Shown here one piece after another: positions 1,801 through 13,233 of a DNA stretch of 13,233 bases. The stretch's first letter is position 1; the number at the start of each line of letters is the position of its first letter. The position numbers and the translations under genes are program-made. Origin of the DNA: an uncultured bacterium (GTDB lineage: Bacteria; Patescibacteriota; Minisyncoccia; UBA6257; 2-01-FULL-56-20); contig CAWJQC010000005.1 of NCBI GenBank assembly GCA_963844965.1, positions 1 through 13,233 of the forward strand. The letters run 5' to 3'. The notes beneath the pieces were generated by a model. That model ran no database searches and was not told where the DNA came from. It worked only from the letters and a program-made list of their open reading frames with translations.

Positions 1801-1829
1801 ATTATATACTAACTAAAATAAAATGTCAA
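1801..1829 (-). promoter_or_regulatory. Perfect consensus sigma70 promoter TTGACA-N17-TATAAT on the minus strand, driving the 127-aa gene
   Basis: Minus-strand read: gggcTTGACAttttattttagttagtaTATAATgg. The -35 is at 1829..1824 and the -10 at 1806..1801, with a predicted TSS near 1793 and a 5'UTR of about 40 nt to the SD/ATG. Confidence 0.65.
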
Positions 1830-2014
1830 GCCCACATCCCCTGCCCAAAATAGTGGTCATAGTAGGCCCGACGGCAAGCGGCAAGAGTCGCTCCGACCAT
1901 TTTCTCGGAACCGCGGTCCTTCGGCTCCTGCGGCCAAAGTCCGCTGCTTCTCGGCGTCAAAACTTTTGCCCCGCAAAAGGCCAAACTTTTGACGCCTGCG
2001 AAAGCTTCCTCTAA
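1823..2014 (+). pseudogene. Relic of a MiaA N-terminus (P-loop PKIVVIVGPTASGKSR) without the rest of the enzyme; probably a decayed paralog fragment or leader ORF
   Basis: The first ~20 residues match the MiaA signature GPTASGKS and the true miaA N-terminus (PKIVAIIGPTASGKSK). Many codons differ at synonymous positions. Downstream of the P-loop the translation is unrelated to MiaA. It overlaps the -35 of the divergent promoter. Confidence 0.3.
1953..1996. promoter_or_regulatory. 10-bp-armed palindrome GGCGTCAAAA-N24-TTTTGACGCC with a nested 7-bp hairpin (CTTTTGC-ccc-GCAAAAG); the right arm carries the miaA -35
   Basis: Perfect inverted arms at 1953-1962 and 1987-1996, with an inner hairpin at 1963-1979. 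The direct repeat CAAA(A)CTTTTG occurs twice. Candidate operator or attenuator. Confidence 0.4.
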
Positions 2015-3031: not shown

Positions 3032-4064
3032 ATGGCCTCTGGTCGTTTTGAAATCCAATTCTTCGCGGGACTCCTGCTTTTGTCCGCCGCGCTCATGATT
3101 TTTGTTTTTTATCCATGTCTGAACGCGCTTGTCATCGCCATCGCGCTCGCCGTCATTTTCCATCCCATCTATGCGAGACTGCTACGTCTCATGCCGAAAT
3201 GGGAATGGCTTGCCGCCCTGATTACGGTCATGCTAACCATCGCAGTTATTCTCGTTCCGCTCACGATTTTCGGATTCAAAATCTTCGCGGAAGCACAGGC
3301 TCTTTACACGAGCTTTGCCTCGGGCGACAAAGGACCGCTCCTGGAATTTCTCCACGGCAAACTCGCGGAACTTACGCCCGGACTCAATCTAGACCTGACT
3401 CAATACACCCAGCAAATTCTTTCCGCACTGCTTGGAAACCTGGGATTCGATCTTCTCCAGGATCGTCGGCGTCTTCGGTACTTTCCTGCTGGCGCTTTTC
3501 GCTCTGTATTATCTCCTGAAAGACGGCTTGAAACTGAGAAGGGCAATGGTAAAGATCAGCCCGCTTTCGCCTGAGAATTCAGCCGAAATCGTAAATCGCC
3601 TTCAGACGATGACCGGTTCCGTAATTACGGGAACCGTCGCCATGGCTGTCATACACGGAATTCTCGTCGGCCTTGGATTTCTCTTGTTTGGACTTACAAA
3701 CCCGGTACTCTGGGGATTGGTTGCCGTCGTAGCGGCATTTATACCGATAATTGGAACAGCGCTGGTCGTCATCCCCGGAATATTCTGGCTTGTGCTCACA
3801 CAAAATCTCGCCGGAGCGATCGGTCTCGCGCTTTGGGGAATCCTTATGCTCGGGCTCATAGACAACATCCTCAGGCCGCGTTTAATCGAGCGCCGCTCAA
3901 AAGTCCACCCTCTTCTCGTTCTTCTTTCCGTCATCGGCGGCCTCGCGCTTTTCGGCCCGACCGGATTCCTTCTTGGGCCTCTCGTCTTGAGCTTGTTCCT
4001 TGTGCTTCTTGAAATCTATCCGGCGCTCATACTGAAACGCGGCGACAAAACACGGTCCGTCTAG
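3032..4064 (+). CDS. AI-2E family transporter / PerM-like (UPF0118) permease, with an apparent +1 frameshift near 3446
   Basis: Two overlapping ORFs (3032..3574 frame 2; 3432..4064 frame 0) together give a typical ~340-aa multi-TM AI-2E protein. Frame 1 ends its homology at ..LLGNLG. Frame 2 continues SIFSRIVGVFGTFLLALFALYYLLKDG, the family-conserved segment. Skipping one nucleotide after gga (3443-3445) joins them. TAG stop at 4062-4064. Tightly coupled to miaA (4 nt). Confidence 0.75.
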
Positions 4065-4234
4065 GCAAGTCCATCTTCCCAGACCTAAACAGGCGCCAAG
4101 CGAGCGGAAAACAACAAAAAATGCGTATGGTAAAATAGTAATAGACCCCCCACACCAAACGAGAAGTTTCCCGAATACCGAACGCCGCTTCTCGTTTGAT
4201 ATGAGGGTAAAGGTCGTGAAAAAAATATTTATAT

Positions 4235-4507
4235 ATGGCCAAACAAGTCATTAAGCGCGGGGGGAAACGCGAGCCATTCCGGGCCGAGAAGCTGAGGAAG
4301 TCTGTTCGCGCCGCCTGCAGGGACACCCACATGTCGCCGGTCTGCATAAAAAAGGTAGTAACAAAAGTTGCCGGCCCGGTTCTGCGGTTTGCCGCGAAGC
4401 GGAAGGTGGTCAGGGTAGCGGTGCTCCGGAAAAAAGTTCTCGCCGGACTACGCAAGACGGAACCGGCAGCGGCAAAGGCCTGGCTGCGTTACGAGAGACG
4501 GCACTAA
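4235..4507 (+). CDS. Stand-alone ATP-cone domain protein (90 aa)
   Basis: VIKRGGKREPFRAEKLRKSVRAAC ... AKAWLRYERRH matches the ATP-cone consensus VIKRDGR.EPFD..KI ... Y..YRE.R, the NrdR/RNR N-terminal regulatory domain. No catalytic domain is attached and no SD is present. Confidence 0.75.
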   Translation: MAKQVIKRGGKREPFRAEKLRKSVRAACRDTHMSPVCIKKVVTKVAGPVLRFAAKRKVVRVAVLRKKVLAGLRKTEPAAAKAWLRYERRH

Positions 4508-4557
4508 GCCCAAAAGTGGGGGCAGGTAGTTTCTCTGTGGGTTTGTTTTTCATATTT

Positions 4558-4597
4558 AAAAACAGCGGCTTAGATGAGCCGCTGTTTTGTTCTTTTT
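4558..4597. terminator. Bidirectional rho-independent terminator between the ATP-cone gene (+) and the M29 peptidase gene (-)
   Basis: AAAACAGCGGC-ttagatga-GCCGCTGTTTT is an 11-bp stem. A T-run (ttgttcttttt) follows on the plus strand. The A-run upstream (tttaaaaa) gives a U-tract for the minus-strand transcript. Confidence 0.7.
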
Positions 4598-4652
4598 CGG
4601 TGTTTCCGATGCAGGAGCAACCGATGCTTCAGTGAAGTGAAAAATTGTGCTC

Positions 4653-5870
4653 CTAAACCGTGAACTTACCGTCTTTGTAAATCACTTTCGCGCGGCCGCC
4701 TTTAAGATATGCCGTTATGGTTCTCGGAGCGGTGGAAATCAAATCCTCGTGGATGGCGGAATCATTGAAACCGAGCTTTGCCCAGCCGGATTTTCCGACT
4801 TTCGTCGGATTGCCGCTGTAACAGTTGTGGAACGAGGCTCCGACGGCGATGTGGGTGTTGCCGTTCGGGCCGCCGATATTTTCGTCATAAAGCGTCTCGG
4901 CCATGAACTTCGTTATCCTTGAAAATCTTTTATCCGTAAGCGAAAATTCGCCGACCTTATTCCCGCCGGGCACGCCGATCATCTGCTTCAGCAGTTTTTG
5001 ATTCCGCTTCGCTTTCGCTTCAACGACGACGCCTTTCCTGAATTTTAGCTCAATGCCGGTCATGAGATGGCCGTGCGTATATACTGGCTGATTGAATTTT
5101 ATCCATCCCTCGGTGCCGCGCCAATCCGGGGAAGTATATATCTCAAAGCTCGGCATATTCCGTCCGCCGCCGCCCTGCCAAAGCCGTCTCTCGCCAAGCG
5201 TAAGCCAAAGGTCCGCGTCCAAGCTGTTCACATAGAGTTTTTCAATATTCATACTGTTCAATCGCCGCCTGATAGCGCTGATCTGCCGTTCAACGCTCCG
5301 CCACTTGGCTATCGGATTTGAAGCATCCAAAAAGCACGCCTCTTCTATTTGACGCCAATACTCCGCTTCGCTCAATCCGGCTTCTTTCGCCATCGCCGGC
5401 GTCCCATAGAGAGCTATCGTCCAGGTGAACTTGCCGAGATTTTCTTTTTCGTCACGCCAGTCCCTGAATGGCTTCATGGACCGGCTCCTCGCGACAATTT
5501 TCTTGGGGTCCACGCCTTTCAGCGCTTCCATATCCGTATCACTCGCAATAAAAATGTAGTGGTCAATCTGGTCAATCAAGCCGCGGAAATAACTGCTCGG
5601 GAAGAAATTTATTTGGCGCTCCTTGGCGTTCACGTAAAAGTCGCGACTGATGTTGAATTCGTGGTCGTTGTTCGGCTGATAACTGGAAATGGTGTGCCCG
5701 CCGACCCTCGTGATAGCCCTCAGAAGTTCAGCGTAGAGAGGTTTGGCGTATTCATAAGCAACGATATAGACAACTTCTCCCCTTCTCACGCCCCGGCCGC
5801 CGCCGAGCGCGAAATTGACAAGGACGTCAGCATACTTGCTTATAATTTTCCGGCTGGGTTTATAGGACAT
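4653..5870 (-). CDS. Aminopeptidase, MEROPS family M29 (AmpS/PepS/aminopeptidase T-like)
   Basis: 405 aa. N-terminal KYADVLVNFALG..GEVVYI and C-terminal ETLYDENIGGPNGNTHIAVGASF fit the M29 thermophilic metalloprotease pattern. TAG stop at 4653-4655. Confidence 0.75.
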   Translation of the reverse strand: MSYKPSRKIISKYADVLVNFALGGGRGVRRGEVVYIVAYEYAKPLYAELLRAITRVGGHTISSYQPNNDHEFNISRDFYVNAKERQINFFPSSYFRGLIDQIDHYIFIASDTDMEALKGVDPKKIVARSRSMKPFRDWRDEKENLGKFTWTIALYGTPAMAKEAGLSEAEYWRQIEEACFLDASNPIAKWRSVERQISAIRRRLNSMNIEKLYVNSLDADLWLTLGERRLWQGGGGRNMPSFEIYTSPDWRGTEGWIKFNQPVYTHGHLMTGIELKFRKGVVVEAKAKRNQKLLKQMIGVPGGNKVGEFSLTDKRFSRITKFMAETLYDENIGGPNGNTHIAVGASFHNCYSGNPTKVGKSGWAKLGFNDSAIHEDLISTAPRTITAYLKGGRAKVIYKDGKFTV

Positions 5871-7168: not shown

Positions 7169-8579
7169 CTACTTTAGAGCTTCAGTCAGTAATTTCCTTA
7201 ACTCCTCAGGATTAGCCCGACCTTTCGTTTTCTGCATTATCTGGCCGATGAGAAACTGCAGGCTCGCTGCCTTGCCCTTTTTGTAGTCCTCAACCGCTTT
7301 GGGATTTTTCTCTATGATACTCATTCACGACTCTTTCCAATTCGCTGGTGTCCGAAACCGTTTCCATACCTTCGCTCTTCACGATCTCCTCCGGGTCAAG
7401 GCCAGTTTCAAACATTTTTTTCAGAGCGTCCTTCGCTTGGCGGCTGCCGATTTTTCCCTGCTCAATAAGCGCGACGAGGTGCGCCAGATGTTCCGGTTCC
7501 ACTTTAATATCGGCAAAACCGATGCCGGATTCGTTCATTAGGCCCACAAGGTCGGATGTTAGATAGTTGAAAACCAGAACGGCGTCGCCGTCCGATTTTT
7601 GTTCCCTCAATTCGCTCACGGCTTCCTCAAAATACCCAGCGAGTGCGGGCTCGCCCACCAAGGTATCTGTTCTCTGCACACCCAATCCATATTCTTCTTC
7701 AAACCGCACGCGTTTCACATCCGGCAACTCCGGCAATGCGTCGCGCAGTTTTTCAATATCAAAAACTTTCGTTTCAAACGGCGGCAGGTCCGGCTCCGGG
7801 AAATAGCGGTAGTCGTGCGCCTCTTCTTTTGACCGCTGGCTCACCGTCATCTGTTTCACGTCATCCCAGCCGCGCGTCTCGTGCGCCACCTTTTCGCCCT
7901 TCTCCAAAATTTCCTGCTGGCGCTTAAGTTCATAAGCAATCGCCGCGCCGACTGCTTTGAACGAATTGATGTTCTTCAATTCCGTCTTCGTGCCCATATT
8001 CAAACTCACATTCGCTTCTATGCGCATCTGCCCGCGCTCCATATCAGCGTCCGAGACGCCCAAGTACCTCAAAATTAATTGAAGTTCCCGCGCGAATTTC
8101 ACGACTTCTTCCGCCGATTTCAAGTCCGGTTCGGTTACAAGTTCCATAAGCGGAACGCCCGCGCGGTTGAAGTCAACCAAACTGGAGTTGATTTTATCGT
8201 CATGAACCAATGTTCCCGTGTCCTCCTCCAGATGGACGCGCCTGACGCGCACGCCGTTCAGTTCCCCGCCTGAGACAATCGGCTGGTCGTATTCCGAAAT
8301 CTGGTAGCCCTTCGGCAGGTCGGGATAAAAATAATTTTTGCGGTCAAACTTCGCGACGGGATTGATTTTCCCACCCAAAGCGAGACCGACTTTGATAACC
8401 GACTCCACTGCCTGCATATTTATAACAGGAAGCGTTCCCGGATGACCCAAGCATATTGGGCAAACATTCGTGTTCGGATGCTTCTCGTCCGAGTCGTTCA
8501 GCGAATCGCAGAACATTTTTGTCCGCGTCCTGAGCTCGGCGTGGATTTCTAGACCAATGGTGGGTTTATATTTATCCAT
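7169..8579 (-). CDS. gatB: Asp-tRNA(Asn)/Glu-tRNA(Gln) amidotransferase subunit B, with an apparent +1 frameshift near 7319 separating the catalytic part from the C-terminal YqeY-like tail
   Basis: The 429-aa ORF (7290..8579) is GatB up to ..SELERVVNE. The adjoining frame (7324..7169) encodes IIEKNPKAVEDYKKGKAASLQFLIGQIMQKTKGRANPEELRKLL, the canonical GatB C-terminus (compare IVDEVIANNPQSVEDFKNGK..GFLVGQIMK). Removing one nucleotide joins them as VVNE-IIEKNPKAVEDY with no gap relative to homologs. Confidence 0.85.
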
Positions 8580-9580: not shown

Positions 9581-10424
9581 CTAAACACGCGCTTCAAGAT
9601 TCAGCGCTAATTCGCCAGAATCGACGCGTTCAAGCAGCCGCACGATTGTCGCATACAGTTCGTGCGTTGAGCCGCACCGCCATTCCCAAAGTATTTCGCG
9701 CTCTCCGCGCATTCCTACCGGATACGGATAAGTGGAAGATTCCACGATTATGGGTCGAAAAGTCTGGCAAGAATTTTTGAAGCTGGCCGATGGGTTTCTG
9801 AACACCTTCCGGCACCCACTCCGGCGGCTTGACACCGAACCTGCGCAAATACATTTTCAGCTTGGATGATTTTTCATCGGTGTCCACGTCTCTCGGCGTG
9901 CCGTATCCTTCGAAATACACGACTGCATAGCGCTCCGCGTCAAGCAAGACGATATTGCCGGCAGTCAATGAATCCTTAAGCGGCAATGCCTCATTCACAA
10001 GCGTATGATATTCTTCGTTATATCGCCTGCAAAAGTCCGCAATAAAGTTCCAGTCGTCTTGGTCATAAACAACGGGGAGTTTCGGTGTTTCCTCAAGAAT
10101 ATTCTCCTCCCGATAATTACGCAAAGAAACTCTGCTGTATTTCTTCCAGAAGCTCCTCAGTTCCTCAAGCTTCAATCCACCACGCGGCCAAGATTGAAAA
10201 GCTGGACAGTTGAATCCTGCGTCAACGAGCTGCTGAATCCGGATATTCTTCAGAGGTAAAAGTTGTATCTTCGGGACGACTATGTTTCTTTTACGAAACA
10301 GATTTCCAATAAGATGCCCGAGCGGCGAAGGCCCATCGGCAGCTTTTGTGATATTTATAATGCCGAGCTTCTTCAATATGCGAGCGATTGCTTCGCGCTG
10401 GCTTCCAGTTCGCTTCATATACAC
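9581..10424 (-). CDS. Uncharacterised ~280-aa protein; the C-terminus probably continues in the +1 frame, ending at 9581 rather than 9630
   Basis: Start at ATG 10424 with GGGGGA 6 nt upstream. No family recognised by eye. The ORF-track frame ends in an Arg/Ala-rich tail (GRNARRARNTLGMAVRLNARTVCDNRAAA) that looks like out-of-frame translation. The alternative frame (..GMRGEREILWEWRCGSTHELYATIVRLLERVDSGELALNLEARV) uses ordinary codons and stops 8 nt before the terminator hairpin. The frame switch would be near 9720-9740. Confidence 0.5.
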
Positions 10425-10535: not shown

Positions 10536-10660
10536 TTCCGATAGGAGCATGTGTCCGTTTCCGCATCGTGCGGATTCAGCGACTGGCTCGTTTTACAACT
10601 TAGCCGAACCAGAAGTGTCCATTGATGACTGCTGGCGGTTTCCTGCAAAGGGAGAACGCC

Positions 10661-10978
10661 ATGCAAACGGCCAATATCACGCTTGAACGCGTCCTGCCGA
10701 TTGAGCAAGCTTTTGCGGCGGCACGAGAAGCAGTCCTTGAAAAAGCCGACGGTGAGAATATTTTTTTCTACAAAGACAAAACATTGCAGCTTCAAGATCT
10801 TTATCCGAGAGAACTGAATTCCGCCGCACTTTACCTCTTGGAAGAAAATGTGGCTTTTCAGCGCGAACTGCGGAAATATCTTCTGGAGCGGTATGGAATT
10901 GACACGCTGCGACTATCCGCGGTCGTGCACCTCGGAAACCGAAAAGGGTATCATCGGAATGATTCCCCCTTACGTTGA
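10661..10978 (+). CDS. Hypothetical protein (105 aa); possibly the N-terminal part of a single protein continuing into the ParB/Srx-like ORF
   Basis: ATG 10661 is preceded by AGGGAG with a 6-nt spacer. The upstream TTG/ATG at 10622/10625 lack an SD. No recognisable domain. It ends in a TGA immediately after a C5 run (10965-10969). Confidence 0.5.
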   Translation: MQTANITLERVLPIEQAFAAAREAVLEKADGENIFFYKDKTLQLQDLYPRELNSAALYLLEENVAFQRELRKYLLERYGIDTLRLSAVVHLGNRKGYHRNDSPLR

Positions 10979-11318
10979 AATTTCGGAGGAGTTGGTGAGG
11001 ATCATACCGCTTGACGGAGATCGCGAACCTCCTCCGTCGCAAATACTTAACGTGCCGATTTTGATCGACGGATTGCACCGCGCGGCTCTTGCGGATGAAG
11101 AAAAGATTCCGCTTCGCTGCATCGTCTGTAGCGGAAACTTTGACCGCCGATACCTCTATACCTCTTACGCCGCGCATGGGTCCGAAATAAAGTTATACAA
11201 GAAAGTTCCACCAGTGAAAAAACGTTATAGGCGACAGAAAGAATATTCCTTCATGCGACCACTTGAGGTTTTCCGATTAACAAACGTCGGAGTTGGCGGC
11301 GAGTATGACAGGAAGTAA
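10959..11318 (+). CDS. ParB/Sulfiredoxin-fold (ParB N-terminal-like) domain protein, ~119 aa
   Basis: VEISEELVRIIPLDGDREPP parallels the ParB N-terminal box (I..I.pNP.QPR). ILIDGLHRAALADEEKIPLRCIV parallels the GxxR/GCHR motif region of ParB/Srx (iaGeRRwrAa..g...iP.iV). It overlaps the preceding ORF by 20 nt in the +1 frame. Its stop (11316-11318) sits inside the SD of the next gene. Confidence 0.5.
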   Translation: MIPPYVEISEELVRIIPLDGDREPPPSQILNVPILIDGLHRAALADEEKIPLRCIVCSGNFDRRYLYTSYAAHGSEIKLYKKVPPVKKRYRRQKEYSFMRPLEVFRLTNVGVGGEYDRK

Positions 11319-11329
11319 GGAGTGATTAC

Positions 11330-12454
11330 GTGCCAAAGAAAACGCTTGTGATTATCACCGGTCCTTCTCGCGTCGGTAAAACAACGATCATCGATAAACT
11401 TCTTGAGATTGTGCCATCTTCAGCGCGATTCGTAACAACGACTACGCGGCCACCACGACCCAAAGAACGGGACGGTGTGGACTATTATTTTCGGAGCCGT
11501 GAGGAATTCAAAGCTGGCATAGAGAGCGGCGAGTTTATCGAGTGGGTGGAATCATACGGGCATTTCTATGGAACTTCCAGAATTGAACTTTCGAGACTGA
11601 TGGACAGCAATTCTGTACTGTTTGCCGCTACTGACACTCGCGGAGTCGTCGGCCTCAAGCAGGAATTTCCTCAAGCCGTCACCGTCTTCGTTAGGCCGGG
11701 CTCAATGGAAGAACTGGAAAAACGGATTGCAAACAGTACCGAGTTAACACCCGACTCTATTCAAAAAAGAATGGCTGCGATTACAGATAAAATGCGGCGT
11801 GCCGGCGATTTTGACTACTTAGTTACGAACGCCGAAGGAAAACTCGGCGACGCAGTACAAGCGATATTCAGTATACTCAAAAACCATACCACCTGGCGCA
11901 TCGGCTTTGACCTCGACGGCGTGGTCATAGACCATACCGCGAATAAGATATCTGTTGCCGAAAGATTGGGGATCCGACTCGCTCCGCGAGAGACACCGTC
12001 GAATATCATGAAGATGAAAGTCGACCCGCAGATCTACAGAAAGATCAAAAAAACGATATATGGTGACCTCTCCGTAGAACTGCTAGCCCCGATAATGCTC
12101 GGAGCGGAAAATGTTCTGGCCAAGCTTAAAACGGCAAAATTTCCGCTCTTCCTTATCTCCATAAGACCGACCACCGAAGAACCGATAGCGTGGCTTAAGA
12201 ACCGCGGTTTATGGGAAAAATATTTCGACAGCCAAAATGCATTTTTTGTAAAGGAACGGGTCGAAAAGGATGAAATTGCGCGCAAACTCATGCTGGATAT
12301 TTTTCTTGATGATGAACCGAGTACGCTACGTACAATGCCTTCGGTACCGAAAAAATTTCTTTTCGATCCTTATGGCGTTTACCCGGAAAACCTAGAGTCT
12401 TACGCTGTGGTGTCTGGCTGGAAAGAGTTCGCTGATGTGATTTTGTCTCTATAA
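11330..12454 (+). CDS. Fusion protein: N-terminal guanylate kinase domain plus C-terminal HAD-superfamily NT5C-type 5'(3')-deoxyribonucleotidase-like domain
   Basis: GTG start with SD TAAGGAG 7 nt upstream. Gmk hallmarks: GPSRVGKTT, TTTRPPRPKERDGVDYYF, FIEWVESYGHFYGTSR, FDYLVTNAEGKLGDAV. The C-terminal half shows IGFDLDGVVIDH (HAD motif I), FLDDEP and VVSGWKEF, which parallel NT5C-family nucleotidases (D.DGVL, LIDDnP, vsGW.d). TAA stop. Confidence 0.8.
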   Translation: MPKKTLVIITGPSRVGKTTIIDKLLEIVPSSARFVTTTTRPPRPKERDGVDYYFRSREEFKAGIESGEFIEWVESYGHFYGTSRIELSRLMDSNSVLFAATDTRGVVGLKQEFPQAVTVFVRPGSMEELEKRIANSTELTPDSIQKRMAAITDKMRRAGDFDYLVTNAEGKLGDAVQAIFSILKNHTTWRIGFDLDGVVIDHTANKISVAERLGIRLAPRETPSNIMKMKVDPQIYRKIKKTIYGDLSVELLAPIMLGAENVLAKLKTAKFPLFLISIRPTTEEPIAWLKNRGLWEKYFDSQNAFFVKERVEKDEIARKLMLDIFLDDEPSTLRTMPSVPKKFLFDPYGVYPENLESYAVVSGWKEFADVILSL

Positions 12455-12462
12455 AAATTGAG

Positions 12463-12500
12463 AATAAAAAATGCCCCCTTCAAGATGGGGCATTTATTTT
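12463..12500. terminator. Bidirectional rho-independent terminator (AATAAAAA-ATGCCCC-9 nt-GGGGCAT-TTATTTT) between convergent genes
   Basis: 7-bp GC stem at 12471-12477 and 12487-12493, flanked by an A-run upstream and a T-run downstream. It lies 9 nt after the fusion-gene stop and 14 nt after the minus-strand DNPH1-like stop. Confidence 0.65.
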
Positions 12501-12514
12501 CCCAAAATTCTTTT

Positions 12515-12976
12515 CTACGCCAATCTCTTTAGCAATTCCTCGGGCGTGGAAACGACTTCATGGATAAGTTTGTGGCTGGAGGGCTCTTCGTACAAATCGT
12601 TGGGATAACTTCCCATCAGCGTTTTCGGATGCAGGGCATAGCACATTTTTCCGGCCATGGCCGCGGCGAAAAGTTCACCGTTCGTGTTCGCACCAAGATA
12701 GCCGTCCTTGTTGAAAATAAAACAAACGTCGGCGACGCGCACTTTGCGGAAAAGATGGTCGTACACTTTTCCCGCGACAGTTTCGCGGTAATTCGCGTCA
12801 GCGGCGAGCCGGTCCTTCTCGTGAAGCTGTTCAAATCCCATCGGCCGCTCTTCAAAATTCGGCTCCAATATGACGGGATGCAATCCTTTTTCCGCGGCAA
12901 GTTTGCGCAGCTCGGCTATGAATTCGGCCAAATCTTTTTTAAAACGGACACTCGTGCAAAAAACGACGGATTTCAT
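12515..12976 (-). CDS. DNPH1/Rcl-like 2'-deoxynucleoside 5'-phosphate N-hydrolase / nucleoside 2-deoxyribosyltransferase-fold protein (153 aa)
   Basis: The N-terminus KSVVFCTSVRF parallels DNPH1 (YFCGSIRGG). The core ADVCFIFNKDGYLGANTNGELFAAAMAGKMCYAL matches the NDT/DNPH1 motif (sDavvA.ld....GTafElGyA.A.gKPv). TAG stop at 12515-12517. Confidence 0.7.
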   Translation of the reverse strand: MKSVVFCTSVRFKKDLAEFIAELRKLAAEKGLHPVILEPNFEERPMGFEQLHEKDRLAADANYRETVAGKVYDHLFRKVRVADVCFIFNKDGYLGANTNGELFAAAMAGKMCYALHPKTLMGSYPNDLYEEPSSHKLIHEVVSTPEELLKRLA

Positions 12977-13233
12977 CCCATTAGAAGCAGGTCGCGGTCA
13001 GCGCCCACTTATGATTATGTTTATAATGCAAAGACTTTGACTCCCATCCCGTTATATATTTTCCGCAATGCGACCGCGGCTTCTAACGGGATCATCCCAT
13101 TAAGTATAGACCAGAAAACAAAAAAGTCCTGTGGACAACTGGACTTCAAAATTCCACCAGACAATAAGAAGCGGGTCAAATCAGCTTCAACTCTTTTAGA
13201 ATAAAGTACCAGGGCTTTTTTGTTTTGTTACAT

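Follow-up and report, generated by a model that had tools for sequence, protein, structure and literature searches.

The gene for subunit B of the Asp-tRNA(Asn)/Glu-tRNA(Gln) amidotransferase (gatB) is divided between two open reading frames (ORFs) in the DNA analysed here, and the split is probably a sequencing or consensus error consisting of one spurious inserted base. The extra base is thus likely to be absent from the real DNA. The window, by which we mean the whole stretch analysed, is an entire public contig of 13,233 bp, and its relatives come from MAGs of the Patescibacteria/Paceibacteria (CPR).

Layout of gatB and position of the extra base

As deposited, gatB lies on the minus strand and consists of an ORF of 429 aa (8579..7290; ATG at 8579, stop TGA at 7292..7290) followed, in the +1 frame relative to it, by a second ORF of 51 aa (7324..7169; MSIIEKNPKAVEDYKKGKAASLQFLIGQIMQKTKGRANPEELRKLLTEALK). 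The longer ORF begins MDKYKPTIGLEIH, and its C-terminal end is given as ...VVNEYHREKSQSG / ...SELERVVNEYHREKSQSG. The two overlap by 35 nt (7290-7324), and an in-frame TGA (7327..7325) stands directly 5' of the shorter one. Both products are on record as separate proteins, the 429-aa one from NCBI and ENA. A sequence-only reading of the window had reported the premature TGA at 7290-7292, the split by a single extra base and the continuation of the C-terminal part in the next frame, and all of this is borne out by the ORFs and by codon alignment. The parts of gatB are as follows.

7290..8579, minus strand: gatB, frame-0 part; residues 1-420 are genuine GatB and the last 9 (YHREKSQSG) are out-of-frame read-through to the TGA
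7319..7321, minus strand: surplus nucleotide of gatB, placed by codon alignment with the relatives L088, L089 and L001 and by the repaired ORFs
7169..7324, minus strand: gatB tail ORF in the +1 frame; its last 49 codons are 7318..7172, followed by a stop

Pfam searches place GatB_N (E 2e-105) and GatB_Yqey profile positions 2-107 on the 429-aa ORF, and GatB_Yqey positions 100-148 of 148 on the 51-aa ORF (E 1e-16). The 429-aa ORF alone scores 537.6 bits against NF004012, above the cut-off, and covers profile positions 2-437 of 481; the 51-aa ORF covers 430-479 of 481 in the GatB equivalog profile. In the deposited form PF02637 is divided, and PF02934 and PF02637 are brought together in a single polypeptide by deletion of one base. 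The break had been described as falling between the catalytic body and a YqeY-like tail. It actually falls inside Pfam GatB_Yqey, after the helical domain, and it removes most of the small C-terminal tail domain.

That missing part is encoded by the 51-aa ORF, which includes the Lys-rich motif YKKGKAAS. The +1-frame tail retains, in conserved form, this KXGKXK-type motif, whose function here is predicted, and the helices that follow it. [quoted passage not shown] Both are homologous, in their C-terminal helix bundle, to the 51-aa ORF. Unlike them, this ORF is a fragment that joins up with gatB on removal of one base, and for this reason we do not regard it as an independent gene.

Codon alignment reveals exactly one surplus base in the window, which reads GAG-T-ATC where relatives have GAA-ATT, GAA-GTT or GGG-GTT. 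The DNA of L001, L088 and L089 is in frame across the corresponding junction. T 7319 is most likely the extra base, judging from the alignment, with G 7320 and A 7321 equally compatible with the relatives. Deletion of one base at 7319-7321 yields a single GatB ORF of 469 aa, with scores of 605.2 bits against NF004012 (cut-off 338; profile 2-479 of 481) and 547.7 bits against TIGR00133 (cut-off 314.8). The repaired junction, VVNE|IIEKNPKAVEDYKKGK, aligns without gaps with VVKEILEKNPKAVEDYKKGK of a relative, and alignment to the solved GatB chains 3h0l_B and 3al0_B also crosses the junction gap-free. Junction sequences in the closest relatives are ...VVKEILEKNPKAVEDYKKGK, ...VVKEVLEKNPKAAEDYKKGK or ...IVKGVLEENPAAVADYKKGK.

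Two other explanations of the local sequence were rejected. With the extra base assigned to the A5 run (GAAAAAT, ~7305-7309), the product would read NEYHRENPKAV, whereas IIEK of the +1 frame fits the [IV][IL]EK of relatives. Reading the TGA as a sense codon fails as well; the frame-0 sequence beyond it is not GatB-like and contains more stops.

Over its full length the repaired protein matches bacterial GatB (NF004012/TIGR00133; 3h0l_B, 3al0_B, 3ip4/2df4_B): it comprises the cradle/catalytic GatB_N, the helical domain and a tail bearing the Lys-rich motif, it belongs to the same length class (469 aa), and its gene sits at the same place in the gene order as in relatives. The deposited sequence departs from bacterial GatB in that its frame breaks after codon 420, leaving the last 49 residues in the +1 frame.

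The sequence-only reading had proposed a search for the same split in orthologs, and it is absent from the best 120 relatives listed (81% identity downward), in all of which gatB is unsplit, with both Pfam domains in one protein. GatB lengths among the listed relatives are ~455-520 aa, plus two forms of ~650 aa. These long forms (P0037 and P0054; Paceibacteria/Liptonbacteria GatB) have an additional PF13366 (GxxExxY) domain, and P0003, P0005 and P0008 have low-complexity inserts after the LVHE motif. The GatB of the window has neither PF13366 nor such an insert.

Also intact is gatB in two syntenic relatives, L001 (a 137-kb contig) and L089 (GCA_040960625.1). The window, L001 and L089 have in common the gene order h153, hypothetical, gatB, alpha/beta hydrolase, M29 peptidase, ATP-cone, (AI-2E), miaA and ThrRS. 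Neither gatA nor gatC is present in the 13.2-kb window, and gatB is likewise solitary in L001 and L089.

Other split genes and disagreement between assemblies

Three further split genes were found by tblastn of the proteins of syntenic relatives against the window.

3032..4064, plus strand: AI-2E family transporter, split into ORFs 3032..3574 and 3432..4064; surplus base at 3445/3446
9581..10424, minus strand: conserved hypothetical protein, split into ORFs 10424..9630 and 9835..9581; extra T in the T4 run 9761..9758
10622..11318, plus strand: ParB-CE-domain protein, split into ORFs 10622..10978 and 10848..11318; extra base within 10942-10949

The AI-2E junction reads GGA-T-TCG-ATC in the window and GGT-TCG-ATC in L089, whose intact 338-aa orthologue follows one frame of the window as far as 3445 and the next frame from 3447 on. 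The AI-2E Pfam profile is matched at 2-131 by the first ORF and at 135-326 by the second, and the C-terminal part matches residues ~140-340 of proteins of ~340 aa. This gene is missing in L001 between miaA and the ATP-cone gene. The hypothetical gene (junction GAC-TTTT-CGA) is the orthologue of a 285-aa protein adjoining gatB in L001. That protein is encoded in one frame in L001 and aligns to frame -2 and then to frame -3 of the window. Its T4 run sits directly before TCGA. For the ParB-CE gene (junction CGA-AAA-GGG-T-ATC) the extra base could equally be in the A4 or the G3 run. The N-terminal part has a weak match to PF24392, and seven homologues of 214-252 aa are contiguous over VVHLGNRK|GIIGMIPPYVE.

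Each of the four split genes regains a full-length ORF when one base is deleted. Every lesion is an insertion, and these genes contain no deletions, nonsense codons or second lesions. Four of the ~15 genes on the 13-kb contig are thus split, at ~1 lesion per 3.3 kb. Breakage of several unrelated genes by single-base indels, with both halves conserved, is a pattern that we take as a mark of artefact.

Contigs assembled by Logan from run ERR10755942 (L090, L091 and L092) represent the same strain and are 99.8-99.9% identical to the window over 3.1 kb. L090 corresponds to window 4093..5453 (1359/1361 positions identical), L092 to 11068..11975 and L091 to 12379..13215. None of the three extends over any of the four window frameshifts, and their evidence on these is thus indirect. 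A literature search for the run gave no result. Relative to the window, L090 and L092 carry two single-base deletions at sites other than the four window frameshifts: one at 5029/5030, and one that takes the G of TCGA at 11593. Each breaks a gene (the M29 peptidase and gmk, respectively) that is intact and consistent with its homologues in the window. Three substitutions (5030, 11651 and 12858) also distinguish the Logan contigs, two of them G/A. Single-base indel disagreement between the assemblies therefore runs at ~1 per 1.5 kb, and each time an ORF is lost in one of them. Assemblies of one strain thus differ by single-base indels, at sites outside gatB, which is also a mark of artefact.

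Half of the six indel events (the four in the window and the two in the Logan contigs) are in or adjoin TCGA, the gatB site not being among the three. The association has a family-wise p of ~0.002 over all 4-mers, and in a simulation 0.17% of random placements were as strong. Motif-linked indels are typical of systematic miscalls, such as nanopore data may show at modified bases, and the TCGA pattern suggests systematic, context-dependent miscalls in this case. A single common error process is plausible, with the reservation that the Logan indels are deletions and the window lesions insertions. We also considered a GATC (Dam-like) cause. Deletion of T creates GATC at three sites, yet equally good repairs do not, and the window still has seven intact GATCAT/ATGATC sites; the idea is a weak lead at most.

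One feature counts against an error at gatB. Homopolymers are the commonest place for indel errors, but the gatB insertion is outside any homopolymer.

Similarly fragmented genes occur in other public contigs. In L084 and L085 (ENA ERZ25039540 and ERZ25039529) gatB, miaA and ThrRS are each called in several short pieces. Judging from the 'contig_N' names and the gene calls, we infer that the split gatB of these contigs reflects indel errors of error-rich long-read assemblies. The other database proteins that consist of a stand-alone GatB tail are either pieces in contigs of the L084/L085 type or genes cut by contig ends. The window resembles L084 and L085 in that unrelated neighbouring genes are broken with both halves conserved; it differs in its lower lesion density (~1 per 3.3 kb).

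Among the public collections searched, none contained an intact copy of the same gatB sequence, and no other assembly was found to cover the gatB site. Looked up as exact sequences, the 429-aa and 51-aa products gave no match beyond the window contig, and none of nine proteins in repaired form (three GatB variants, AI-2E, the hypothetical protein and ParB-CE) had an exact match in the collection. The best match in a scan of GTDB species representatives was only 69% identical, the genome of the window being absent from that set. JGI metagenomes gave no match to the DNA pattern across the gatB site, with or without the extra base. A query with the repaired C-terminal 110 aa retrieved only fragments of ≤67% identity, in a search that also missed the window's own proteins and is thus non-exhaustive.

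The window has other features that are unconnected with the four lesions. A diverged 22-codon copy of the 5' end of miaA (MSSPHPLPKIVVIVGPTASGKS; window 1823-1888 vs 2047-2094) lies ~200 nt upstream of the miaA start. Its core of 44 nt (1844-1887) has 70% DNA identity to 2050-2093, and after the copy come unrelated sequence and an 18-nt inverted repeat (1953-1996). The copy looks like a relic of rearrangement or gene replacement. At 11330-12454 (plus strand), one protein of 374 aa joins a guanylate kinase (Pfam residues 4-183) in frame to a C-terminal half of ~190 aa. With its FDLDGV motif, this C-terminal half looks like a HAD-type or deoxyribonucleotidase domain.

A genuine mutation or a functional split

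The main alternative is a real and recent +1 frameshift in gatB and in the three other genes, either in an eroding genome or as minority or hitch-hiking alleles caught in the consensus. We consider this unlikely, while giving it appreciable weight. The deposited sequence does carry the frameshift, with 429-aa and 51-aa products on record, and the position of the gatB insertion outside a homopolymer suits a mutation. Patescibacteria have reduced genomes and depend on hosts. At least one relative, L001, does without the AI-2E gene at this position, and the loss of some of the four genes is conceivable. Several points speak against this. None of the four genes has more than its one lesion, and apart from it their reading frames are fully open and conserved. 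Insertions account for all four lesions, although mutation in bacteria generally favours deletions. Among the best 120 relatives listed, gatB is intact in every one, and there is indel noise between independent assemblies of this strain.

The condition of the tail also bears on this alternative. No stop occurs in the 49 codons of the gatB tail, whose protein sequence is 84% identical to that of L001. Compared with L001 by the Nei-Gojobori method, the tail has dN 0.117, dS 0.63 and dN/dS ~0.19, and dN for the rest of gatB (0.148) is comparable. The tail is without decay, and thus the gatB frameshift is either evolutionarily brand-new or not real. With dN/dS at ~0.19, inactivation would have to be extremely recent and to have occurred simultaneously in four genes.

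If the frameshift is real, GatB cut at residue 420 would lose the tail domain and hence tRNA binding. The cell would then require AsnRS/GlnRS, a second gatB, or its host.

The sequence-only reading had suggested that, if the break is real, GatB is made as two polypeptides or by +1 recoding. This would involve a +1 shift near G-TAT-CAT that gives full-length GatB, or assembly of the body with a 51-aa tail peptide started at ATG 7324. Neither fits the unsplit relatives, the lack of a recoding signal, the three other genes broken in the same way, or the Logan indels, and we consider functional expression from the split gene very improbable.

One point in its favour is the heptamer GTATCAT, of which the two strands of the window together contain just two copies. 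Both are at junctions (gatB and ParB-CE) in sense orientation, and the frame-0 codons at both are TAT-CAT-Arg. The AI-2E and hypothetical-gene junctions, however, have no motif in common with these two, and at ParB-CE the surplus base fits the A4 or G3 run equally well. The tail ORF is well conserved and has its own ATG, with AAGAG 6 nt upstream. This ATG is 32 nt upstream of the stop of the body, a poor geometry for coupling, and the split would run through the first helix of the tail domain. The ATG (7324..7322) is probably fortuitous.

Programmed +1 frameshifts of the prfB type use CUU UGA C with an upstream SD-like element, and programmed frameshifts and natural splits are normally conserved. 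The gatB site resembles the prfB type only in the +1 direction and in the short overlap of the frames; it lacks the slippery P-site codon, the A-site stop, the spaced SD-like element and the conservation. Its frame-0 codons are AAT GAG TAT CAT AGA, none of which re-pairs in the +1 frame (this includes GAG, TAT and CAT). The frame-0 stop is ~27 nt 3' of the shift site, with no stop codon at the site itself. The site has no known hungry-codon context and is not slippery, and no SD-like element is present at prfB-like spacing, the sole purine-rich stretch (GGAAAGAG) being 10-17 nt upstream. The RNA of 7345..7225 is predicted to fold less stably than shuffled controls (z = +1.39), which argues against a stimulatory structure downstream. 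Of slippery codon, conservation and stimulatory element, none was found at the gatB site. A real and tolerated extra base, with GatB produced through an unconventional +1 shift at G-TAT-CAT or as an enzyme in two pieces, is very improbable. If it were so, several genes of this genome would depend on recoding or split expression, and a split or recoded GatB would be unusual in a transamidation-dependent lineage.

Implications for the assembly and for the organism

In the favoured explanation, an assembly error, at least four single bases would have been wrongly inserted in the contig, the spurious base at 7319-7321 among them. These errors would most likely stem from indel-prone reads or from polishing, possibly as motif-linked systematic miscalls. 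With about a quarter of the genes of this public MAG contig broken by single-base insertions, the evidence points to a quality problem. The contig, and probably the whole assembly, is unfit for inferring pseudogenes, gene loss or recoding, and the TCGA-linked indel pattern is a possible handle for its correction. Likewise, the stand-alone GatB_Yqey 'proteins' of L084 and L085 should not be taken for natural splits.

As for the organism, gatB would be a normal single-ORF gene for subunit B of the amidotransferase in a Patescibacteria/Paceibacteria MAG. The cell would make one protein of 469 aa from it, and the 429-aa and 51-aa ORFs would exist in the database record only.
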